A DNA stretch of 34,699 bases from Patescibacteria group bacterium (GCA_018818235.1 JAHISE010000067.1:1-34699), one strand, 5' to 3'; counted from the stretch's first letter, positions 6,227-21,006 are shown. Notes: a model not told the origin generated them from the letters alone. Translations and numbers: made by a program.

Positions 6227-6745
6227 ATGAAACACGCCCTCCTTTGCACCGAACAAGGTATCCCGCAAGGAACCTCAAATGTCGACTACGCACACGCTGC
6301 GCCGGGCAAGCTGCATAGAGCTTTTTCCATATTTATATTCAGAAATAATTATACTGAATTACTTATCCAAAAGAGGACTGACGGAAAGCGATTTGGAGGA
6401 CTCTGGGCAAATACCTGCTGTTCCCATCTGCAGGAAAACGAAGATTTGATCGCAGCAGCAGAGAAAAGGCTCAAGGAAGAGTGCGGATTCACCTGTCCAC
6501 TCACTGAACACTCCTCCTTTATATATAGAGCGAACGATCCAACTGGAGATGCTGTTGAATATGAGTTTGATTCGATATTAATAGGTGACTTCACAAACCC
6601 TAACCTTAATCCTGATCCCACCGAGATTTCCGAACTGAAATGGATCAACATCGATAAGCTTACAAACGAAATCGAAAACAATCCTGAGAAATTTGCACCA
6701 TGGCTTCCAATAGCACTTGATCGGATCTTGAGTATAGAAATTTGA
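6227..6745 (+). CDS. idi: Isopentenyl-diphosphate delta-isomerase, type 1 (NUDIX fold)
   Basis: Motifs LHRAFSIFIF, WANTCCSH, EYEFD and FAPW. Confidence 0.95.
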   Translation: MKHALLCTEQGIPQGTSNVDYAHAAPGKLHRAFSIFIFRNNYTELLIQKRTDGKRFGGLWANTCCSHLQENEDLIAAAEKRLKEECGFTCPLTEHSSFIYRANDPTGDAVEYEFDSILIGDFTNPNLNPDPTEISELKWINIDKLTNEIENNPEKFAPWLPIALDRILSIEI

Positions 6746-6756
6746 TAAGATATCGA

Positions 6757-6784
6757 CCGGATTCCGGATTCCGGATTCCGAATC
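6757..6784. repeat. Heptamer tandem repeat (CCGGATT)x4
   Basis: Read directly; the same unit occurs at 10117 and 15757 inside CDSs. Confidence 0.9.
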
Positions 6785-6802
6785 TACGCTTCGCATAACA
6801 AT

Positions 6803-7498
6803 ATGGATAAACCTTCAAGCTTACATCTCGCAATCATCCCTGACGGAAATAGACGTTGGGCGAAGAATCGCAGCCTCCACCCCTGGAAAGGACACGAACA
6901 AGCAATAGAAAACTTCCGATCTATAACAGAGTGGTGCAGAAACGATCCGCGTGTGAACATTCTGACTGTCTGGTGCTTCTCTACAGAAAACTGGAAGCGT
7001 GATCCAAAGGAAATAGAGATGCTTATGAAGATGTTGGAGGATTATTTAAGAAAGGAGCAGGAAGGTTTTATCGAAAAGAAGACAAAGTCCCTTCATTCCG
7101 GAAGAAAAGATAGGATCCCCTCTTCTCTTGCGCAGTTAATTGAGGAAGTTGAAAAGAAAACTGCTGACCAGTCCGAATTTACTCTGCACTTGGCTGTTGA
7201 TTACGGTGGGAAGGATGAGATCATACGTGCAATCAATAAAATATCCGTAACGGAAGATTGCGATCTTCCGCTGCGATCAGAAAATGGTATTCGTGAGCAT
7301 CTCGACCATCCGGAATTGTCTGATATTGATTTGATCATCCGAACTTCCGGTGAACAAAGAACCAGCAACTTCTTCCTTTGGCAAACTGTTCACTCCGAAT
7401 GGGTTTTTAATAACAAGTTGTTCCCTGATTTTGAAGTTAGTGACCTAGAATCTGCAGTTGATGACTTCGCAAATCGTACACGTCGCTTTGGTTCATGA
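6803..7498 (+). CDS. uppS: Undecaprenyl diphosphate synthase (cis-prenyltransferase)
   Basis: Motifs HLAIIPDGNRRWA, FSTENWKR, IIRTSGEQRTSNF and RRFG. Confidence 0.96.
   Translation: MDKPSSLHLAIIPDGNRRWAKNRSLHPWKGHEQAIENFRSITEWCRNDPRVNILTVWCFSTENWKRDPKEIEMLMKMLEDYLRKEQEGFIEKKTKSLHSGRKDRIPSSLAQLIEEVEKKTADQSEFTLHLAVDYGGKDEIIRAINKISVTEDCDLPLRSENGIREHLDHPELSDIDLIIRTSGEQRTSNFFLWQTVHSEWVFNNKLFPDFEVSDLESAVDDFANRTRRFGS
7246..7275 (+). repeat. Intragenic REP-like palindrome (in uppS)
   Basis: CGTAACGGAAGAT-TGCG-ATCTTCCGCTGCG. Confidence 0.8.
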
Positions 7499-8442
7499 AA
7501 AACATAGGTTCAGCTCCGGGAAAAATAATTCTTACCGGTGAGTACGCCGTAGTTTTCGGATTCCGTGGTATCGCAATCCCCTCTCCTCTGAAAATGGAAG
7601 TTGAGTTTGAAGAAAACAGATCGATCGAAGGGATTGAAGTTGAGTGGGAAGGTATTAAAGGTGACGAAACAGCCTTCGCCCAGCCGTCGCTCTCCGAGCT
7701 ATGGCCGGCAGGCAAGGCTACGGCTGTCCAGGGTTGGAATTCTAATTTAATAGAGATACTAAATTCAATTCAGCAATTCAAAGGAAAGATTTTTAATGGA
7801 AAACTGACTATCAAAAACTCAATCCCACTCGGAAAAGGTATGGGATCTTCAACTTCACTCGTAATTGCTGTGGCCAGATGCATGCTTGGTGGTGAATGCC
7901 GATCCGAAGCACTTGCGATCGAGAATAAACTGTCACCAAACAACAGTGGAATCGATTTCAATGTGATTTGGGAAGGTTGTCCCATACTGTTTAAGAAAGA
8001 TGAAAAACATCAATTAATTGATATACCCAAAGACTTTCTGAGTGATGCAATATTAATTGATACCGGCACACCAAATGAGTCAACAAAGGAGTTGGTAGCA
8101 TGGGTAACCGACCGTCGTGGTCGTAGCGGAAGATCGTTATCTTCCGATAATGTTTATGAGGCATTGGAAATGATCGGAAATTGTACAGAGCGCCTCATTA
8201 ATAATGATGATTTTTCAAAGATTATTGCTGATAATTATCGCGCCCAACTCACCCTCGGCATCGTCCCTCCTCAGGTTCAGGAATTAATCGAAGAAATTGA
8301 ACAGGCAGGAGGAGCCGCAAAGGTTATGGGGGCGGGCGGGAGAACGGGTGGGGGTGGGATGGTGTTGGCTCTACACAAAAATCTGAAGAATATTGAAGAA
8401 ATAGCTGCACAATATCATCTACAATCACTCACACTTAACTAA
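7495..8442 (+). CDS. mvk: Mevalonate kinase (GHMP kinase)
   Basis: Motifs APGKIILTGEYAVV, IPLGKGMGSS, SGID and AKVMGAGG..GGG; ATGA overlap with uppS. Confidence 0.88.
   Translation: MKNIGSAPGKIILTGEYAVVFGFRGIAIPSPLKMEVEFEENRSIEGIEVEWEGIKGDETAFAQPSLSELWPAGKATAVQGWNSNLIEILNSIQQFKGKIFNGKLTIKNSIPLGKGMGSSTSLVIAVARCMLGGECRSEALAIENKLSPNNSGIDFNVIWEGCPILFKKDEKHQLIDIPKDFLSDAILIDTGTPNESTKELVAWVTDRRGRSGRSLSSDNVYEALEMIGNCTERLINNDDFSKIIADNYRAQLTLGIVPPQVQELIEEIEQAGGAAKVMGAGGRTGGGGMVLALHKNLKNIEEIAAQYHLQSLTLN
7669..7727. repeat. Two nested ~32-nt hairpin elements inserted in frame in mvk
   Basis: ACAGCCTTCGCC[CAGCCGTCGCTCTCCGAGCTATGGCCGGCAGGC]AAGGCTACGGCTGT. Confidence 0.85.
8122..8146 (+). repeat. Intragenic REP-like palindrome (in mvk)
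   Basis: CGTAGCGGAAGATCGTTATCTTCCG. Confidence 0.85.
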
Positions 8443-8444
8443 GT

Positions 8445-8485
8445 CATTTTCCACTTTCCACTTTCCACTTTCCATTTTCCATTCC
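8445..8485. repeat. Heptamer tandem repeat (TTTCCAY), about 5 units
   Basis: Fills the mvk-mvaD spacer. Confidence 0.9.
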
Positions 8486-8486
8486 C

Positions 8487-9512
8487 ATGACAACCGCCTC
8501 CTCCTCCCCCAATTCCGCATTCATTAAATACTGGGGCAACCGAAATAATCCCCTCAGGCTTCCTGTGGCAGATTCATTCTCTATGTCACTCGACGGTCCT
8601 ACCGTAGAAATAGATATAGAACACTCAGATGCTTTAAAAGTCATATCATTTAATCCTGATGGAACGCAGCTTGAGCTGGGCGAGAAACATGTGAACAGAT
8701 TTGGAAAGACTTTGGATATGACAAAGGAGTATTTAACAAAGTTGGGAGCACCAGATGCAATTCCTGCTTCCGTTTCCATCACCGTAAGATCTAATATCCC
8801 ACCTGCTGTGGGACTTGCCTCTTCCGCAGCAGTTTTTAGCTGCCTTGCAAAGGCAATACAGGGTTTGGTTGCTCCGGTGATTGAACTTACTAATGATCAG
8901 ACGAGTGTAATAGGTCGATTGGGATCCGGTTCTGCAGGAAGAAGTGTACATGGAGGCTTTGTTGCATTGGTTGCGGGTGAAGGTGAAGAGATCGACAGCT
9001 CTTATGGCAAACAATTCGCAGACCAGAACCATTGGACACTCCATGACATCATAGTTGTACCCACAATGCTGGAGAAAAAGGTCGGATCAACCGAAGGGCA
9101 TGCCACTGCACAAACCAGTCCCGGCTATAATGATCGAGTTGAAGCAATAATGAGCCGCAGACAACAGGAATGTATAGATGCAGTTCTTAAAAAGGACTTC
9201 GAAAAGCTTACCGCAGTGTGCGAAGAAGATGTTCTGGACATGCATCATGTGATGCAGACCTCCAATCCCCCACTTAACTACCTGACTGACGACACTCATA
9301 GGATCACAAACGGAATAATTGAGCTTAGAATCTCCGAACACCTTCCTGTGTTCTACACAATGGATGCCGGCCCTACAGTTCAGCTGATATGTACCGACGA
9401 ATCCGTTGATCGTGTTCGGGAATTTGCCTACGCACAAGAAGGATGCAAGGTTTTTGAGGCGAAGACGGGGGGTGGGGCGAGGATTGTTAGAGAGGTGGCA
9501 TTATCTGCTTGA
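8487..9512 (+). CDS. mvaD: Diphosphomevalonate (or phosphomevalonate) decarboxylase
   Basis: Motifs FIKYWG, GLASSAA, RLGSGSA.RS, KKVGSTEG and YTMDAGP. Confidence 0.92.
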   Translation: MTTASSSPNSAFIKYWGNRNNPLRLPVADSFSMSLDGPTVEIDIEHSDALKVISFNPDGTQLELGEKHVNRFGKTLDMTKEYLTKLGAPDAIPASVSITVRSNIPPAVGLASSAAVFSCLAKAIQGLVAPVIELTNDQTSVIGRLGSGSAGRSVHGGFVALVAGEGEEIDSSYGKQFADQNHWTLHDIIVVPTMLEKKVGSTEGHATAQTSPGYNDRVEAIMSRRQQECIDAVLKKDFEKLTAVCEEDVLDMHHVMQTSNPPLNYLTDDTHRITNGIIELRISEHLPVFYTMDAGPTVQLICTDESVDRVREFAYAQEGCKVFEAKTGGGARIVREVALSA

Positions 9513-9522
9513 TATTGCACCC

Positions 9523-9680
9523 TTGTCTGAACCATGATTAATAGGATTATCAGCCTACGCCTCTGGGCTACGGTTGACAGGAAGGATTACCTTGATTTCA
9601 CAATCAGAGCTTTTTTAAGCAAAAATCCACACTTAATGATCATGTAAATCCTTTAATCAAGAAAATCAAGGTTCAGACAA
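9523..9680. mobile_element. Non-coding TIR element with inverted 9-mer tandem arms, copy 1 (carries a hairpin element at 9551-9581)
   Basis: TTGTCTGAACC...GGTTCAGACAA ends; NNNGATTAN 9-mers; homologous to 12921-13020. Confidence 0.8.
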
Positions 9681-9681
9681 T

Positions 9682-9716
9682 CACCACTTTTCACTATTCA
9701 CTATTCACTTTTCACT
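9682..9716. repeat. Heptamer tandem repeat (TTCACTW)
   Basis: Read directly, just upstream of the HMG-CoA reductase start. Confidence 0.85.
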
Positions 9717-9730
9717 CCACAATAGTCTCA

Positions 9731-10987
9731 ATGGACCTCCGAAGCCTCCCTACATCATTAAACTCTTCCGATCGCTGTAACGAGCGTCGCAAAATCATCG
9801 AACGTGAGCTTGGAGCGGACCTTGGAGCACTGAAGATTGATCCAAATAAGCTCGGCAGTGCCGAAGAGAATAATTGCGAACAAATGTTCGGACATGTTCC
9901 GATTCCTGTAGGCCTGGCAGGCCCACTCAAAATTTATTTCAACGGTCGTAGCGGCGATTCGAAAATCGCCGATGAGAATGCCACAAATATTTTCCTCCCA
10001 CTCGCAACAACAGAAGCTGCACTCGTCGCAAGTGTTAATCGCGGGTGCAAAGCTCTCACTTTATCAGGTGGAGTTACAACCAGATCTATATATCACGGCA
10101 TGACCCGATCTCTCGCATTCCGGATTCCGGATTCCGGATTCCGAAACTTCATAGAAACAATTAACAAACTAAAACCTGAGTGGATGAAAATCGGCGAATC
10201 CACCAGCTCCCACCTCAAAATAATTAATTACTACATTGATGAATGTGATAACCATCTATTTGTAACAATCAACTGTGATACCGACGAGGCAATGGGTATG
10301 AACATGGTAACAATTGCCGCTCAGGCAATCGGAGAATGGATCGAGGCACATATTCCTGAGCTTGAATTTATAACAGTGGCCGGAAATGTGGACTCGGATA
10401 AAAAACCGAGCAAAAGAACTCATGATTTGGGAAGGGGTTACGAAGTTTTTGCTGAGGCTGAACTCTCTGAGGAAGTCATCAAGGACGTACTTCATACTAC
10501 CCCCTACTCACTACTCACTACTGCCCAAGCTAAACTTGAATCAGGCTCTAAAGTTGCAGAATCAATAGGTTCAAATCTTCAAGCTGCAAATATTATCGCT
10601 GCACTCTACCTTGCAACGGGTCAGGATGCTGCGCACGTTGTCGAGGGATCGATGGCGGATACAACAATTACAGACGTAGCGGAAGATCGTTATCTTCCGC
10701 TCCGCATATCGGTCCGTTGCCCCGCCATCCTCGTCGGAGTCCGCGGAGGTGGAACTCAACTACCTGCACAATCTCAATGCCTTCAACTTCTTACAAAACC
10801 AATTAACCAATTAACCAATCAACCAATTAACCTACACTTAGCTGAGATCATTGGAGCCGCCGTCCTAGCAGGAGAAATATCGTTATTGGCTGCTCAAGCA
10901 ACTCATACTTTGGCAAAGTCGCATAAATCACTTGCAAGAAATAGTAAAGAACTGGAAAGACCCCAGTTTTTTAAACCCAAATCCTGA
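9731..10987 (+). CDS. hmgA: HMG-CoA reductase, class I (archaeal/eukaryote type); C-terminus extended by an IS insertion
   Basis: Motifs PLATTEAALVASVNRG, DEAMGMNM, GN.DSDKK, ATGQDAAHV and LAGEISL. Confidence 0.95.
   Translation: MDLRSLPTSLNSSDRCNERRKIIERELGADLGALKIDPNKLGSAEENNCEQMFGHVPIPVGLAGPLKIYFNGRSGDSKIADENATNIFLPLATTEAALVASVNRGCKALTLSGGVTTRSIYHGMTRSLAFRIPDSGFRNFIETINKLKPEWMKIGESTSSHLKIINYYIDECDNHLFVTINCDTDEAMGMNMVTIAAQAIGEWIEAHIPELEFITVAGNVDSDKKPSKRTHDLGRGYEVFAEAELSEEVIKDVLHTTPYSLLTTAQAKLESGSKVAESIGSNLQAANIIAALYLATGQDAAHVVEGSMADTTITDVAEDRYLPLRISVRCPAILVGVRGGGTQLPAQSQCLQLLTKPINQLTNQPINLHLAEIIGAAVLAGEISLLAAQATHTLAKSHKSLARNSKELERPQFFKPKS
9947..9971 (+). repeat. Intragenic REP-like palindrome variant (in HMG-CoA reductase)
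   Basis: CGTAGCGGCGATT-CGAA-AATCGCCG, with compensatory stem changes relative to the other copies. Confidence 0.75.
10675..10704 (+). repeat. Intragenic REP-like palindrome (in HMG-CoA reductase)
   Basis: CGTAGCGGAAGATCGTTATCTTCCGCTCCG, encoding VAEDRYLPL. Confidence 0.88.
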
Positions 10988-12257
10988 GAATAGCTTAAAA
11001 CCATGCGGAAAAGGGGCATAGTGTATTTTGACATAGTCCAAATGTCTACTTAACCCATTTTTCGCTATGCAACAATACCTCCATGATGCTCTTAGAAACA
11101 ACCTTCGTCCTGTAATTAAGTATTGCACCAGGCCTCAGCAAAAAGCTGTAAGCGAGGTTGTTCGTGGTCTATTCACAGAAGCCACACCTGTCTTGAGGCA
11201 TGTTGCGCAAGACAAAACAAAAACAGTTAAAAAGCAGGCTGAAAAATACAGCTATCACTTGGGAAACATTGATGTAACAGATGAAGTTGATGCCCTTGCA
11301 TTGAGGAAAGTTAAATCTCAAGTGCGTAAGCACACAGTGATTGCCTATGATCTTTGTGATATCAACAAAGAGTTTTCAAAAAAGATTGAGAAGATGACAA
11401 ATGTATTTGATGGAAGCAGGAGAAAGATAGCACCGGGATTTTTTCTGCATGGCGTTGGTATCAATGGCATTCTCTTAAAGTTTCAAGTGCACGATAATGA
11501 GGTACACACACTCAGCCAAATTCGATCAAAGATCGTTGGAAACATTTCAAAAGAACTCAAAAACAAGGGTATCTGGGTTTTTGATCGTGGCAATGACAGC
11601 AAGACATGGTACCGTGAACTCTGTCAGGTTCACGAAGCTGATTTTATCGCAAGAGTAAAAGAAAATCGTTATGTTGTCTTAAAAGAAACTGGGGATTATT
11701 TGCTTGTGAAAGATTTGGAACCGGGCATGTATGAAGTCCACTTTATGAATTATCACAACAACAAAGTGCACACAGATATCACCTATACACTCATCATCAA
11801 TGAGCACTTGGAAGACAAAGAGCCCATCAGACTAATCAGCAACCTTGGCATTGATCAATTCACATCAGAAGAGTTTGTAACAATGTATCTGGAACGCTGG
11901 GGTATTGAGAATGTTTTCAAAAGAGCAAAGCAGAAGTTTTGTCTTGAAAAGATCAGAGTTCTGAGTTTTCGGAAGTTCAAGAACCTTGTGTCTCTCATTC
12001 AGCTTGCAACCATTATTGCTACTGTAACATTTGTTGCCATTCAGAAGTCCACACATGCAGTTATCGTTGCTGTTGTGAAACTTTACAAAAACTTCCTGTG
12101 GCATCGTTCACTTGAACAAAATCTCGACTCCTTCATTGCATTCATGCAGGCATCTTTGCCAAGACTTGTACATCGTATCAAACTTCCTTCTGACCAAATG
12201 AGCCTGTTTTCAAGGAAGTGTTTAAACAGAGTGGGGTAAAAACTGGGGTCTTTTCAG
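10952..12257 (+). mobile_element. IS4-family insertion sequence, 1306 bp
   Basis: 20-bp TIRs CTGGAAAGACCCCAGTTTTT / CTGAAAAGACCCCAGTTTTT; direct repeat TAAAGAA at 10945-10951 and 12258-12264. Confidence 0.93.
11067..12239 (+). CDS. DDE transposase (IS4 superfamily)
   Basis: Motifs IAYD and VFDRG, plus the Y-R-E-K signature YLERWGIENVFKRAK. Confidence 0.93.
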   Translation: MQQYLHDALRNNLRPVIKYCTRPQQKAVSEVVRGLFTEATPVLRHVAQDKTKTVKKQAEKYSYHLGNIDVTDEVDALALRKVKSQVRKHTVIAYDLCDINKEFSKKIEKMTNVFDGSRRKIAPGFFLHGVGINGILLKFQVHDNEVHTLSQIRSKIVGNISKELKNKGIWVFDRGNDSKTWYRELCQVHEADFIARVKENRYVVLKETGDYLLVKDLEPGMYEVHFMNYHNNKVHTDITYTLIINEHLEDKEPIRLISNLGIDQFTSEEFVTMYLERWGIENVFKRAKQKFCLEKIRVLSFRKFKNLVSLIQLATIIATVTFVAIQKSTHAVIVAVVKLYKNFLWHRSLEQNLDSFIAFMQASLPRLVHRIKLPSDQMSLFSRKCLNRVG

Positions 12258-12450
12258 TAAAGAATAATTGACTTATGCCCTGTTTTATTGCAAGATACTG
12301 CACTCATATCCTCTTTTGGATATGCGTTCATTCCCATCAAAGGACAACGGATAAATCTCCGGAATCAAAAACCGGAAGATGAAGATATCCCAATCTAGTT
12401 GATCAAGTAACCGTCACCCGTCACACGTTTCGCGAAAGAAGGAAGAACCA

Positions 12451-12828
12451 ATGAGAAAAGCTTTGCTGACCACATTGTCGTGGATTGTAGTCGTAGCACT
12501 CATCATGCTTGTTTGCCAATCGATCCGTCAACAGGATCGGAACACAAGTCAATTCCTGATGATGGATAAGTCAAACCGTGTTATTTCCGCCTCAAAAGAA
12601 AGGCACGAACAAAAAATCGCCCATATACTCGAGAGCCCACTAGACCCGGAATTGGACAAAGATACATGGAAGTATCTGAATTGGGAAAGGAAGGAATTGG
12701 ATCTTATGATCCAGAAACACAACAACGAAATCTCTTGTTATGGTTATGACAAAGAAACACCGGCGAGCGAGTACAAACCGATTCCCAAAATCCCGGCCAT
12801 TCAGTGGCCGGAAACTGCCCCACCGTGA
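12451..12828 (+). CDS. Hypothetical membrane-anchored protein
   Basis: N-terminal hydrophobic helix, purine-rich RBS (AAGGAAG) and its own terminator. Confidence 0.7.
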   Translation: MRKALLTTLSWIVVVALIMLVCQSIRQQDRNTSQFLMMDKSNRVISASKERHEQKIAHILESPLDPELDKDTWKYLNWERKELDLMIQKHNNEISCYGYDKETPASEYKPIPKIPAIQWPETAPP

Positions 12829-12869
12829 CCCAACCAACCGTTGTCCAATTCATGTTAATGGGAACCGAT

Positions 12870-12899
12870 CCCGACGTCCACAGCGACGTCGGGGTTTTT
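12870..12899 (+). terminator. Intrinsic terminator
   Basis: CCCGACGTC-CACAGC-GACGTCGGG followed by GTTTTT. Confidence 0.8.
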
Positions 12900-12920
12900 G
12901 ACATATTTGTCTGAACCCAC

Positions 12921-13020
12921 TTGTCTGAACCATGATTAAAAGGATTATTTGATTACCTTGATTGCCTTAATCAGTATAATCAAGTTAATCCTTTAATCGT
13001 GTAAATCAAGGTTCAGACAA
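12921..13020. mobile_element. Non-coding TIR element with inverted 9-mer arms, copy 2
   Basis: TTGTCTGAACC...GGTTCAGACAA; extra left TIR at 12907-12917; right end abuts the ATG at 13021. Confidence 0.8.
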
Positions 13021-14058
13021 ATGCACTCCTCAATAATCTCCTTCGGCCAATACATCCCCTCCAAACGAATCAAAACTGAGGAGATTGCACGGCAACATTC
13101 AAAGGATCCTGCTCCTTATATAAAAGGATTGGGAGTAACCGAGAAATCAGTCCCCAACCAAGGCGAAGATACTTTTACGATGGCGGTTGAGGCGGGTAGG
13201 CAAGCATTAAACTCCGTAGCGGAAGATCGATATCTTCCGCCCCTGCGATCCTCGCAAATTTCCGCTGTCTTCGTCGGCTCCGAAAGTCACCCGTACGCAG
13301 TTAAACCCACAAGCGGAATGGTAGCCTCCGCACTTGAGTGTCATCCCTTCTGTCATTGTGCTGACTTGGAGTTTGCATGCAAAGCCGGAACCGCAGCAAT
13401 GCAAATTGTTGATAGCATGGTGAGGTCCGGTCAGATTGAATATGGAATGGCTATAGGATCGGATACTGCTCAAGGCAAACCCGGTGATGCACTCGAGTAC
13501 ACAGCTGCCGCAGGAGCAGGTGCGATCATACTTGGACCGGAAAATTCCAAGAATGCCATCTGCAGAATAGAAAAGACGCTATCTTTTACATCAGACACTC
13601 CTGACTTTTGGAGAAACTCAGAGAAAAAGTACCCCGAACATGCCGGGCGCTTTACGGGTGAGCCTTCTTATTTCCGTCATACCGAAGAAGCACTAAAAGG
13701 AATACTCGAAATTACTAAAATGGAGGTTGGCGACTTTGCTCACGCAGTATTCCACATGCCCAATGCAAAGTTCCCTTCCAAGATTGCAAATAAATTCGGA
13801 TTTACCAAAGAGCAAATGGAACATGGCTTCATTGTTCCCAAAATTGGGAACACATACAGTGCATGTTCACTGCTTGGGCTGATATCAGTTCTGCAAAAAG
13901 CAAAGAAAGATGAAAAGATACTTCTTGTTAGCTACGGATCGGGTGCGGGGTCGGATGCGTTTGTGTTTACGATGCTGAAGGATGGAGTTGAACTACCCTC
14001 AGATGAAAGAGCAACTGAATATGTGGATTATAATGAGTATGTAAGGTGTACTTCTTAA
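13021..14058 (+). CDS. HMG-CoA synthase, archaeal type
   Basis: 345 aa; motifs GSESHPYAVKP, FACKAGT (catalytic Cys), FHMPNAKFP, IGNTYSA and SYGSGAGSD. Confidence 0.95.
   Translation: MHSSIISFGQYIPSKRIKTEEIARQHSKDPAPYIKGLGVTEKSVPNQGEDTFTMAVEAGRQALNSVAEDRYLPPLRSSQISAVFVGSESHPYAVKPTSGMVASALECHPFCHCADLEFACKAGTAAMQIVDSMVRSGQIEYGMAIGSDTAQGKPGDALEYTAAAGAGAIILGPENSKNAICRIEKTLSFTSDTPDFWRNSEKKYPEHAGRFTGEPSYFRHTEEALKGILEITKMEVGDFAHAVFHMPNAKFPSKIANKFGFTKEQMEHGFIVPKIGNTYSACSLLGLISVLQKAKKDEKILLVSYGSGAGSDAFVFTMLKDGVELPSDERATEYVDYNEYVRCTS
13215..13240 (+). repeat. Intragenic REP-like palindrome (in HMG-CoA synthase)
   Basis: CGTAGCGGAAGATCGATATCTTCCGC, encoding VAEDRYLP. Confidence 0.88.
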
Positions 14059-14092
14059 GAAGAATCTTCAGATTTTTGGCATCACTGTGATC

Positions 14093-14354
14093 CGACCTCA
14101 CCCCCTGTCCCCCTCTCCTGCCACGCAAATGACTTTGAATAAGTCTGATGTATATATTCAATTCTGGATACACACAGGAGAGGGGGGAGCCCATATCATA
14201 GAAATGAATATCATTGCTACATGATAATGAAAAGAATCTAAAAACCTACTTAAACTTAGGCTCCCCCATCTCCTCTGAATCTGATTATATATTAGCAATA
14301 GATAACATAGGGGTTCACTGACGTGGGAGGAGAGGGGGACAGGGGGTGAGGTCG
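14093..14354. mobile_element. CCCCTCTCC double-hairpin MITE-like element (262 bp)
   Basis: TIR CGACCTCACCCCCTGTCCCCCTCTCC; inverted homologue of 32113-32507. Confidence 0.85.
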
Positions 14355-14436
14355 AAAAGAAAATAGAAAGAACAAATAAAGACTTTGAGTGCATGCATGA
14401 TCCTCTAATTTGTAGTAGGATATCCCAGAGCTACCC

Positions 14437-15552
14437 ATGAATCAGGACATCTACATCACCGGAACCGGCCAAACACCCTTTGGAGAACATTGGGACTTAA
14501 GTCTAAAAGATTTAATGGAGCAAGCCATATCAAAAGCTATTGAATCATCAGAATTAACCGCACTTGATATCGATTTTATCATTGTCTCCAACATGCTCGG
14601 CGAAAGAACCAATGACCAAGCACATTTGGGAGCAATGGCATCCGCAATGCTTCCTCATAGACCTCCTGCCATAAGAACCGAGGCCGCATGTGCATCGGGA
14701 TCGGTCGCAATTCATACGGCGTTGAGTTTACTGGAGAGCGGACGTGCCGAAACAGTCTTGGTAATAGGAGTCGAGAAGATGACAGATGTTCCAACAGAAG
14801 AAATTTCCGCAGCACTTATGGGAGCCGCCGATGCGGAGAAAGATATTCCTTCAGGGCTCACATTCCCCGGAATTTTCGGACTGATCGCTAACAGATACAT
14901 GTACGAATATAGTCTGACCAGAGATAAATTGAATATAGTAAGTGCCCGACATCACGAAAATGCGGTTTATAATCCCAATGCACAGTTCCAAGTTAAGATT
15001 CCTGCTGAAAAAGTCTCTCAGAGCGCAACAGTTGCGGACCCACTTTGTCTTTTAGACTGTTCTCCAATCAGTGACGGAGCTGCTGCTGTCATTCTTTCCA
15101 CTAAACATGAGTCACCAATCAGAATTGTGGCTTCACAAATGAGCACTGATACTTTAAGTATTACAGATCGACCCTCATTAACATCGTTCCCGGCAACAAA
15201 AGATGCTGTTGAACGTGCACTGGAAGAAGCTCAGATTTCTCGCGAAGATATTTCCCATTTGGAGATACATGATTGCTTTTCCATAGCTGCCATAATCAAT
15301 TTGGAAGACCTAGGGTATGCAATTCCGGGGCAAGGAATTCGGCTATATGAAGCGGATAACTCGATGCCTTCAATTAATAAGTCCGGTGGACTTAAAGCAT
15401 GCGGTCATCCTGTAGGAGCAACAGGTGTAAAGCAGATCAGCGAACTTACTGCGCAACTTAAATCTTCAAATGAGCGCTATGCTCTTGCTCACAACTTTGG
15501 AGGAGCCGGTGCAACATGCTGCATTCACATTTTAGAAAATTCAAATGCCTGA
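14437..15552 (+). CDS. Acetoacetyl-CoA thiolase, archaeal/SCP2 type
   Basis: Motifs EAACASG, HDCF, GHPVGATG and HNFGG. Confidence 0.93.
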   Translation: MNQDIYITGTGQTPFGEHWDLSLKDLMEQAISKAIESSELTALDIDFIIVSNMLGERTNDQAHLGAMASAMLPHRPPAIRTEAACASGSVAIHTALSLLESGRAETVLVIGVEKMTDVPTEEISAALMGAADAEKDIPSGLTFPGIFGLIANRYMYEYSLTRDKLNIVSARHHENAVYNPNAQFQVKIPAEKVSQSATVADPLCLLDCSPISDGAAAVILSTKHESPIRIVASQMSTDTLSITDRPSLTSFPATKDAVERALEEAQISREDISHLEIHDCFSIAAIINLEDLGYAIPGQGIRLYEADNSMPSINKSGGLKACGHPVGATGVKQISELTAQLKSSNERYALAHNFGGAGATCCIHILENSNA

Positions 15553-16507
15553 TTCTCCTCAAGTAATTCACCGAGCCAATAAAGAACAGTATAAAAAAAT
15601 GCAGAGTGGTGTCATCATCTCTCATACAACAATAATGAATCCGCCTAAGGGTTTCGGAAGCAAGCCGAAGACTATTGGGTTAATTGAATTGAATGATGGT
15701 AGCCGAGTGCTTGGTAATATTATTACGCGCGTTTCGGAATCCGACTCAACATTCTGTCCGGATTCCGGATTCCGGATTCCGATCATTGGGCAAAGCGTTA
15801 CTCCCCACCTAAGACTAAATAGAATCAATCCCCAAGGCCTGCGCATCTACGAAGTCCAATACCAAGTAACTCAAGAACAACCCGTTAAACAAAAACAAGA
15901 ATTCCACGGTTACATAATTGCCCTTACCGGACCTTCGGGAGTCGGGAAAACAACCGTAAGTAAAATTCTTACTACCAAAATAGGAGACTATGCTGTCAAA
16001 GTTCCGATACTTACAACCAGAAAATCTTCCAATCAGGATGATGGTGAATATGAATACATCTCAGGAAGAGAATTTGATGTACTCAAGAAACAAAACAAGC
16101 TCGCATCCTTCACTCGCATCCCATCTTCTACAGAATCGCGATGGTACGGATATAGAAAGAGTGATATCGAAGTAATTCTTAAGCAAAAGAAAATCCCGGT
16201 TGTAATTACAGAGATGGGACTACTGCAAGAACTTGCAAATAACTACGGTCGCCGATCAATTCTTTCATTCGGACTTCTCCCCCCGGGAAAGAGCAAGAGA
16301 CTAATGCTCAGTTGCCTGCTCCATCGTCTAAGAAAGCGTGGTCGTGACAGCGAAGAGGCTATCGAAGAGCGCTTAAAGAACGCCGAACGAGATCTGCAGT
16401 ACTTTGACGATATGGGACATCTGTTTGATGATTTGATCGTGAATGAGGATTTGGATACGGTTATTTCTATGCTTAAGGGGAAAGTATTGGCAATCGCGAA
16501 GGGGTAA
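15545..16507 (+). CDS. DUF35-type OB-fold domain fused to a guanylate-kinase-like P-loop domain
   Basis: N-terminal SHTTI..PPKGF...IGLIELNDGSRV (DUF35 OB-fold). C-terminal GPSGVGKTT, LTTR, WYG and RLRKRGRDSEEAIEERL. Overlaps the thiolase stop. Confidence 0.85.
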   Translation: MPDSPQVIHRANKEQYKKMQSGVIISHTTIMNPPKGFGSKPKTIGLIELNDGSRVLGNIITRVSESDSTFCPDSGFRIPIIGQSVTPHLRLNRINPQGLRIYEVQYQVTQEQPVKQKQEFHGYIIALTGPSGVGKTTVSKILTTKIGDYAVKVPILTTRKSSNQDDGEYEYISGREFDVLKKQNKLASFTRIPSSTESRWYGYRKSDIEVILKQKKIPVVITEMGLLQELANNYGRRSILSFGLLPPGKSKRLMLSCLLHRLRKRGRDSEEAIEERLKNAERDLQYFDDMGHLFDDLIVNEDLDTVISMLKGKVLAIAKG

Positions 16508-16640: not shown

Positions 16641-16890
16641 TATCCGACCTCCGCGCATTGGAGCGCCGGTCCCTTTCCAACTGACCTCACCCCCGGCCCC
16701 TCTCCTCTGAGGAGGAGAGGGGAGCTATGCTTTTGGAGAGAACGAACTTTGATTTCTTTAATATTTGAGAGAACAAACATGGTTTTCTCCAATAGCGGAG
16801 CTCCCCTCTCCACAGTGGGCAGGGCACGTCTCACATGTGAGACGTGCCAGGCGGAGCGGTGTGGAGAGGGGCAGGGGGTGAGGTCGGATA
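16641..16890. mobile_element. Composite CCCCTCTCC element with an internal palindrome
   Basis: Ends TATCCGACCTC / GAGGTCGGATA; internal GGCACGTCTCACATGTGAGACGTGCC; shares segments with 2340-2498. Confidence 0.85.
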
Positions 16891-20553: not shown

Positions 20554-21006
20554 ATGAAAGATTCCTTTATCAGAAAACACAATGGCTTCACTCTATTGGA
20601 ATTGCTGATGGTAATGGCAATTATGGTAATTCTGTTGGGTATTATAAGTGTTAAATTAAAACCAATGCTTCGCACCGGTCTGGCATATGATATTCGAAGA
20701 AAGAGTGATGTAAAACAACTGGAAAATGCACTTACGCAAGCTATGATTGATAGAATTAGTCCACCAAATAATATTCCTTCCTCAGAAGCAAATGCAAAAT
20801 GGATTTGCCAATACACTTATAAGGGCATTGACTGCATTGATCCTCCTTTGGGAGGTATTGATTTATCTTATCTGGTTCCGGATTATTTATCAGATATACC
20901 AGTAGATCCTATAATTGAAACAGATGATTTATCAGGATATAAAATATATAAGGATGGTTCATTCTTTTACATAATTGCTCCATATTTGGAACAATTACCA
21001 GATTGA
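20554..21006 (+). CDS. Type IV pilin-like protein
   Basis: GFTLLELL motif; paralogous to the N-terminus of the upstream gene (DLSxLVP..L..IPVDP). Confidence 0.9.
   Translation: MKDSFIRKHNGFTLLELLMVMAIMVILLGIISVKLKPMLRTGLAYDIRRKSDVKQLENALTQAMIDRISPPNNIPSSEANAKWICQYTYKGIDCIDPPLGGIDLSYLVPDYLSDIPVDPIIETDDLSGYKIYKDGSFFYIIAPYLEQLPD

Follow-up and report, generated by a model that had tools for sequence, protein, structure and literature searches.

In-frame hairpins of a probable GTAG-tagged REP family in mevalonate-pathway and other genes of a Candidatus Peribacteria genome

Background

Repetitive extragenic palindromes (REPs) are non-autonomous repeats that form hairpins; a REP-associated tyrosine (HUH/Y1) transposase (RAYT) cuts them and copies them in the form of single-stranded DNA. 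Here we describe five hairpins that lie in frame within a mevalonate-pathway gene block of a Candidatus Peribacteria genome, on a stretch of 34,699 nt analyzed at its full length (the window), together with the family to which they belong. The closest described elements are the GTAG-tagged REPs, for which 'REPtrons' and intragenic copies have also been reported (Di Nocera, De Gregorio, and Rocco 2013, PMC3733652). In the available portion of that paper the repeats have a stem of 6 to 13 bp, a short loop, and GTAG or GYAG at one end, they form sub-families with complementary stems and species-specific families, RAYT genes are flanked by repeats, and some copies inside known genes, including uvr genes and tRNA synthetases, add residues to the product; the Peribacteria family resembles them in these features, with the flanked RAYT genes seen in relatives of the source genome. 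It differs in that the repeats of that account are mostly extragenic, whereas 21 to 24 of the 42 copies found here are inside open reading frames (ORFs), in that CPR/Patescibacteria (CPR, Candidate Phyla Radiation) are not among the phyla listed for GTAG repeats in the accessible text, and in that most Peribacteria copies pair a GTAG in one arm with the complementary CTAC in the opposite arm. Save for the intragenic share and the phylum, the description, as far as it is available, fits the Peribacteria family throughout. Intragenic GTAG REPs are therefore known already from the accessible part of PMC3733652; what stands out here is an intragenic share of about one half, an operon hot spot, and recurrent occupancy of the same sites, which, with different hairpins, is noted in that part only for recB of two Xanthomonas species.

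REPIN-RAYT systems are described as having master sequences and persisting vertically, as decaying once the RAYT is lost, and as possibly being taken over by a related RAYT (10.1101/2021.07.10.451892; 10.1101/2024.10.14.618302; both available in part). The Peribacteria family is like them in having a dominant 'master' sequence per genome and in persisting vertically within its lineage (10.1101/2021.07.10.451892), and their picture of take-over and decay matches the RAYT remnant and the two intact RAYTs of the genome studied here. Literature searches returned no paper naming both RAYT or REPIN and Patescibacteria. We know of no link between Rickettsia palindromic elements (RPEs) and a RAYT. Like the Peribacteria hairpins, RPEs are selfish palindromes that sit in frame within the housekeeping genes of a bacterium with a small genome, whose proteins tolerate them (see also PMC3733652). 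In the same partial source RPE-4 and RPE-6 are tagged with CGTC and RPE-1 is a longer insertion, unlike the GTAG-tagged elements here, which are set apart from RPEs by tag and description. The words palindrome and transposase are absent from the available text of the 2016 Peribacteria genome paper (PMC4736985).

Results and discussion

Five hairpins in frame within one gene block

The source genome (G000 below) is a metagenome-derived Candidatus Peribacteria genome of the CPR from groundwater, with 1.58 Mb of sequence in 164 contigs, 41% G+C, and 95% completeness; the window is the whole of its contig C121. Five palindromes at 7246, 8122, 9947, 10675, and 13215, which an initial reading made without database searches (the sequence-only reading) had assigned to uppS, mevalonate kinase (mvk), HMG-CoA reductase (HMGR), and HMG-CoA synthase (HMGCS), hold up in both position and host. 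The copy in the cis-prenyltransferase gene uppS (6803-7498, + strand; Pfam PF01255, 230 bits) spans 7246-7275 (+) with a GGAAGAT stem and TGCG loop, reads SVTEDCDLPLR in frame, and scores 45.2 bits with the covariance model of the family. The copy in mvk, a GHMP kinase gene (7495-8442, +; Pfam GHMP_kinases_N and _C, orthologue alignment), is at 8122-8151 (+), with the same stem, loop CGTT, and 3' flank GAT, and reads RSGRSLSS in frame (42.4 bits). HMGR (9731-10987, +; Pfam PF00368, 308 bits) hosts two copies. Site 1, at 9947-9976 (+), has a GGCGATT stem and CGAA loop and reads RSGDSKIADE in frame (35.8 bits), and site 2, at 10675-10704 (+), has a GGAAGAT stem and CGTT loop and reads DVAEDRYLPLR in frame (46.3 bits). 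The fifth copy, at 13215-13244 (+) in the archaeal-type HMGCS gene (13021-14058, +; Pfam ACP_syn_III_C and HMG_CoA_synt_C, orthologues 82% identical), has a GGAAGAT stem and CGAT loop and reads SVAEDRYLPPL in frame (42 bits).

At 7252, 8128, 10681, and 13221 the core matches GGAAGAT-N4-ATCTTCC without a difference. At 9947 the CGTAGCGG lead is unchanged and the stem is another, GGCGATT/AATCGCC, in which all pairs are intact, in agreement with the compensatory changes first read there. Two frames are used across the window, again as first read and as translation confirms: VAEDRYLP is common to HMGR site 2 and HMGCS, with VTEDCDLP in uppS, and the other frame gives RSGRSLSS in mvk and RSGDSKIA at HMGR site 1. 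A search with the 12-mer GTAGCGGAAGAT, allowing up to two mismatches, gave 13 strand-matches in the window against a shuffle mean of 2.14, with none of 100 shuffles reaching 13, and the family covariance model run over the 34.7 kb matched at these five places only. Folded as single-stranded DNA, each copy reaches -8.2 to -11.6 kcal/mol (z -3.0 to -5.0). The copies are single hairpins 0.7 to 2.5 kb apart, unlike REPINs, which are extragenic doublets of two inverted REPs and a spacer forming one unit (Bertels and Rainey). The claim that all lie on the same strand stands insofar as the conserved CG(T/C)AG end is on the sense strand in 5/5; it is weak evidence, because the elements are near-perfect palindromes that match the minus strand as well.

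A genome-wide family of GTAG-tagged hairpins

Copies in the source genome were counted by a hairpin search followed by a covariance model (R1) built from 33 aligned copies, with matches taken up to E 0.1. R1 gave 72 strand-matches that collapse to 44 places, of which 42 were kept; the weak matches at C153:7583 and C119:13847, which have no clean hairpin, were left out. The layout is CG(T/C)AG, a stem of 8 to 13 bp, a 4-nt loop, and then usually CT(A/G/C)CG. The GGAAGAT stem occurs as an exact pattern at 19 places; the other stems are GGAAAGC, (A/G)GCGATT, GCGGTT, GGAGGTT, GGAGAGC, and one GCACGG. Among the 33 aligned copies the CG(T/C)AGCGG lead is nearly invariant, with G5 and A7 at least 90% conserved and T or C at position 6. 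Across the inner five pairs of the stem we counted 37 two-sided changes versus 2 unpaired cells, and the covariation score is 0.330 versus 0.154 in shuffles (0/500 reach 0.330), pairing statistics that are partly circular since the census demanded a near-perfect hairpin. Only one perfect CGG...CCG hairpin with a 4-nt loop lacks the family flanks. Pairs of hairpins 25 to 60 nt apart are present on contigs C37, C101, C144, C153, and C158. The family thus has the short stem-loop, the GTAG/GYAG at one end, and the dispersed copies with complementary stem sub-families of GTAG-tagged REPs, and its stems, loop, and GYAG tag bear out the GTAG-plus-hairpin layout proposed at the outset.

A mainly extragenic distribution was not found. 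Half of the copies (21/42) are inside Pfam-supported genes, all in frame and without stop codons, and another three are in ORFs of 142 to 210 aa without an assigned family. The genic hosts outside the window encode Sua5/YrdC, a class I aminoacyl-tRNA synthetase, a carbamoyltransferase, Fe/Mn superoxide dismutase (SOD), FemAB, signal peptidase II (LspA, in the C-terminal tail), UvrC, an LTD-domain protein, a PduO-type adenosyltransferase, a TsaB-like protein, MurB, a GT1 glycosyltransferase, AcrB (two copies), an HGSNAT-type acyltransferase, and an FtsJ methyltransferase. Three copies are in open frame just upstream of the likely starts of GAPDH, SufB, and an HD-domain gene, a placement we infer from where the first Met falls and where the domain begins. 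The remaining 15 have no spanning ORF longer than 104 aa. The genome-wide count of genic against intergenic copies, which had been suggested as a check, gave 21 genic copies and three more in ORFs on one side, and 15 outside long ORFs on the other. An ORF of at least 140 aa spans 27/42 copies versus 80% of 3000 random positions; genes thus hold slightly fewer copies than expected, and the family is not attracted to them. Its genic tolerance is nonetheless far above what the literature describes for REPs.

Within the 21 genic copies, 13 use the frame GTA GCG GAA..., six use CGT AGC GGA..., and two use others. Three copies use the frame in which a GTAG would be read as a TAG stop, one in FtsJ and two reading QRKI (in an unnamed ORF and in a leader-like stretch before the HD-domain gene), and all three carry CGCAG in place of CGTAG, which fits selection at translation.

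The mevalonate block is a hot spot for the family: five of the 42 copies lie within 6 kb, and only 1/5000 random placements puts five copies within such a span. Clustering is general in the family, with seven neighbor pairs less than 1 kb apart versus a mean of 1.0 in random placements (0/5000 reach seven). The sequence-only reading had described the palindromes as concentrated in one pathway, found only in isoprenoid genes and never between genes. That is true within the window, and the local excess in the operon is real; across the genome 37/42 copies are elsewhere, among them the 15 without a long spanning ORF, and the hosts are unrelated (SOD, UvrC, MurB, Sua5, AcrB, and others). Nothing in these data ties the element to isoprenoid metabolism.

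Comparison with orthologues and protein models

The window hosts were aligned to 62 to 80 Peribacteria orthologues, and four further hosts to same-genus orthologues. The HMGCS segment adds 7 aa relative to same-genus orthologues, and 66/68 orthologues have no insert at the site. In mvk the gain over same-genus orthologues is 6 aa; HMGR site 1 is 9 aa longer than the 13-aa empty sites, and HMGR site 2 is 4 aa longer than its counterparts in the same-genus genomes G001 and G004. MurB gains 8 aa, Sua5 12 to 14 aa, SOD 3 aa, and UvrC 2 aa in G000. The uppS copy gives no scorable length change, as it is in a loop that is hypervariable among 62 orthologues. On the strength of these net length changes the hairpin segments are added or replaced residues, not ancestral ones, and the alignments accordingly confirm, at the scorable sites, the extra or replaced residues that had been anticipated. 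Insertion boundaries, and with them any target-site motif, could not be fixed from empty sites in relatives, which at 55% to 83% protein identity are too diverged.

AlphaFold models built from 41-row alignments (mean pLDDT, the predicted local distance difference test, of 84.6 for HMGR and 86.4 for HMGCS) place HMGR site 1 in a loop between two strands (residues 71-84, pLDDT <50 at 73-79) and site 2 in the turn 316-323 of a beta hairpin with strands 310-315 and 324-333. The HMGCS copy is placed at the end of helix 51-68 and in the coil 69-76. In these two proteins the copies are thus predicted to sit in loops between secondary-structure elements, consistent with the loop inserts that the sequence-only reading had proposed.

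Relatives and occupancy of the same sites

The GGAAGAT type is present at 19 places in G000, at one place each in G002, G003, G005, and G015, and in none of the other 26 genomes, and a reversed-pattern control gave 0. R1 finds the family in 7/7 same-genus genomes; it misses stems that differ (in G007 it found one copy, where 13 places hold that genome's own (G/C)GGACG-GCGC type), and copy numbers in relatives are therefore lower bounds. Each species in the genus has its own dominant stem sequence. Other genera contain CCGTAGC...GCTACGG elements (GTAGC-hairpin-GCTAC) with other stems. In G007, 3/13 own-type copies are within 3.7 kb of its mvk-HMGR-HMGCS genes, two of them at the loops occupied in G000 (HMGR site 2 and HMGCS) and one at another mvk site.

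Hairpins at the same sites in other species have stems different from that of G000 or, in one case, the same. The mvk site holds a GGCGATT hairpin in G001 and G004 and a CCGAAGT hairpin in G002. At HMGR site 1 the element is the same in G001 and G004, and G005 has a different stem. A GGGACG-type hairpin is present at the turn of HMGR site 2 in G007, which also has a GCGACG-type hairpin at the HMGCS site, and perfect hairpins occupy the SOD and UvrC sites in G003. The MurB and Sua5 copies are unique to G000. Since point mutation cannot swap one perfect stem for another of the genome's dominant type, either the same loops would have been hit repeatedly or resident copies would have been overwritten.

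RAYT genes and their flanking repeats

Matches to Y1_Tnp are present in 24/31 genomes searched. With the NCBIfam model NF047646 and its curated cut-off of 80 bits, RAYTs were called in G000 on C90 (97.7 bits) and C106 (93.8 bits), on G004:C25 (106.2 bits), on G001:C3 (105.9 bits), and in G005 (89.9 bits). The G004:C25 and G001:C3 genes have GTAGCAGCGATT-CGAA-AATCGCTGC and its complement as flanking repeats on both sides, a stem type shared with HMGR site 1 and with seven to eight further places in G000. The two intact G000 RAYTs are flanked by another palindrome family, (T/C)AGCG-CAGGGA-TACT-TCCCTG-CG, and the general pattern (T/C)A(G/A)-CG-N6-N4-N6'-CG finds only that family and the one studied here. 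R1 had no match better than E 0.69 at the G000 RAYT loci, because it fixes GG/CC at the base of the stem. The search for a RAYT flanked by the motif, another check proposed at the start, therefore succeeded in the same-genus G001 and G004; G000 itself yielded only a remnant and two RAYTs with repeats of the same layout.

As separate observations, the RAYT ORF of G005 carries a GGAAGAT copy in frame (G005:C79:4579-4614), and RAYT frames with an in-frame family hairpin are also present at G006:C11:39314-39329 and G007:C22:20816-20831.

Origin of the intragenic hairpins

It is quite probable that the five palindromes are members of a GTAG-tagged REP family copied by a RAYT, with intragenic copies tolerated in frame. 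New copies would arise by the action of a RAYT on the GTAG-plus-hairpin signal. Many insertions would hit genes, because about 80% of the genome is long ORF, and survival would be limited to copies that preserve the reading frame, bring in no stop codon, and fall in loops that tolerate them. The stem would stay paired since the transposase needs the hairpin, not for the sake of the peptide, and the excess in the operon may come from local spread and the re-use of resident copies as targets, not from isoprenoid chemistry. Such a family would extend the range of REP/RAYT systems to the CPR and suggests that half of a selfish repeat family can persist in essential enzymes of a genome that has 1.6 Mb and little spacer DNA. 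Lineage-specific 'loop inserts' of REP origin should then be expected in annotation and structure prediction. The differing hairpins at the same codon positions in sister species constitute a natural experiment that bears on RAYT re-targeting of existing REPs.

Several observations weigh against copying by a RAYT as the full account, in addition to the partial circularity of the pairing statistics. Perfect hairpins in the same loop of another species are present at 6/9 comparable intragenic sites of G000, which random transposition does not predict. Net length changes are not constant, spanning -1 to +14 aa, where simple insertion of a 20- to 30-nt unit would give a fixed increment; the lower extreme is UvrC of G003, which has a perfect hairpin at the site yet is one residue shorter than empty orthologues, and insertion of a fixed unit alone therefore does not explain the sites. 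The G000 orthologue of the G001 and G004 RAYTs is a remnant (C118, about 20641-20871) that covers only profile positions 98-146 with 52.9 bits and is bounded by hairpins of yet another stem, and the 164 contigs of this 95% complete assembly yielded no intact RAYT with GGAAGAT-type flanks. Metagenome contigs of four runs aligned to the operon contain no presence/absence polymorphism. In the three DNA runs the contigs carry the copies that they cover without an indel (all five in X2, three in X7, one in X8) and no empty site, a comparison that is not independent, as some of the runs may be the source sample. From the single RNA run came short contigs that cover stretches of HMGR and HMGCS without a mismatch; none spans an element and one stops exactly at 13215.

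The same-site occupancy could also reflect the use of resident copies as landing pads, in which an intragenic hairpin is recognized by the RAYT and its cassette is overwritten by the dominant stem variant of the species. We regard this as a tentative idea with a minor share of the probability. If true, orthologous codon positions would carry different perfect hairpins with little net change in length, a dispersed repeat would undergo concerted evolution inside coding sequence, and the loading of the mevalonate operon in two species with two stem types would be explained.

The species-specific perfect stems at the mvk, HMGR site 1 and 2, HMGCS, SOD, and UvrC sites, and the enrichment of the operon in two species with different stems (5/42 copies in G000, 3/13 in G007), might instead reflect signals selected by the host. 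On this account the hairpins would be retained at fixed places in the mevalonate genes, would act in the mRNA or DNA of the operon in stability, processing, or pausing, or be bound by a domesticated RAYT, and would evolve together with a reader specific to the species; the accessible part of the REPIN-RAYT literature likewise argues for vertical inheritance and a possible benefit (10.1101/2021.07.10.451892). The hosts are functionally unrelated, however, the MurB and Sua5 copies are confined to G000, 15/42 copies are outside long ORFs, the hairpin is missing from many working orthologues (as in the 66/68 HMGCS orthologues above), and among the RNA-run contigs none spans a copy. Selection for a host signal is therefore unlikely.

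It is far less plausible that selection acts on the peptide itself, with the short linear motif xAAEDRYLPLR as an addition to numerous proteins. The frame giving A-E-x-x-x-x-P-L-(R/Q) is used by 13/21 genic copies, and the Leu codon after CCG varies synonymously (CTA, CTC, CTG, TTA, TTG), as such selection would allow. However, the P-L-R pattern is a consequence of the palindrome, three frames are used and yield unrelated peptides (RSGRSLSS, QRKIVIFR), stem variants alter the peptide while keeping the pairing (AESRGFPL, AEVHEPPL, GDSKIAD), and the 15 copies outside long ORFs are not accounted for. Derivation of the palindromes as a miniature inverted-repeat transposable element, formed of the paired ends of the IS4-like insertion sequence with a DDE transposase that lies between HMGR and HMGCS (10951-12258), has a negligible probability and is rejected, the 21-bp terminal repeats (10951-10971 and 12238-12258) being unlike CGTAGCGGAAGAT. 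No longer element bounded by palindrome arms was seen, and a half-site search for one (9-mer, 1 mismatch) returned only noise from common Ala-Glu-Asp codons.

Other features of the window and host genes

The mevalonate-pathway block spans 6227-16507 of the window. It holds a Nudix gene (idi-like), uppS, mevalonate kinase, diphosphomevalonate decarboxylase, and HMGR, together with the IS4-like insertion sequence and a small ORF, and the archaeal-type HMGCS, which is followed by a thiolase and a DUF35/kinase fusion. The IS4-like element encodes its transposase at 11067-12239 between 21-bp terminal inverted repeats and overlaps the 3' end of HMGR, the final ~15 codons of which are insertion sequence; orthologues stop at ...LAR. 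Directly upstream of the HMGCS start is an AT-rich 119-bp inverted repeat (12905-13023), with 46-nt arms that are 80% complementary inside 13-nt perfect outer arms. The fusion at 15545-16507, directly after thiolase and HMGCS, joins a DUF35/OB-fold domain to a guanylate-kinase-like P-loop kinase and could be a candidate for the phosphomevalonate kinase step. The Peribacteria genome paper records the mevalonate pathway, and this step is not listed in its available text (PMC4736985).

An Rfam search of the window reached the gathering score for a tRNA only. Members of two other abundant GC-rich palindrome families, CCCCTCTCC...GGAGAGGGG and GGCACGTC...GACGTGCC, are present at 2361-2455 and 16697-16848; these are intergenic, often occur together, and are distinct from the GTAG hairpin family.

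Second inserts are present in two of the host genes. Mevalonate kinase has another in-frame insert found only in G000 (about 7670-7735), ~21 aa long, GC-rich, and absent from seven orthologues, with 26- to 30-nt matches (90% to 92%) to dispersed sequences on other contigs. SOD has a second in-frame insert of ~27 aa with 68% G+C (G000:C32:7144-7239), built of two further palindromes, one of which recurs on C101 and C141 and inside a tRNA-synthetase ORF on C18; short hairpins are present at this second SOD site in G005 and G003. The C18 ORF (G000:C18:2-3382) is an open frame of 1127 aa that runs off both ends of its contig and has class I tRNA-synthetase domains with a central histidine-phosphatase domain, and could represent either an atypical fusion or a frame that reads through two genes.

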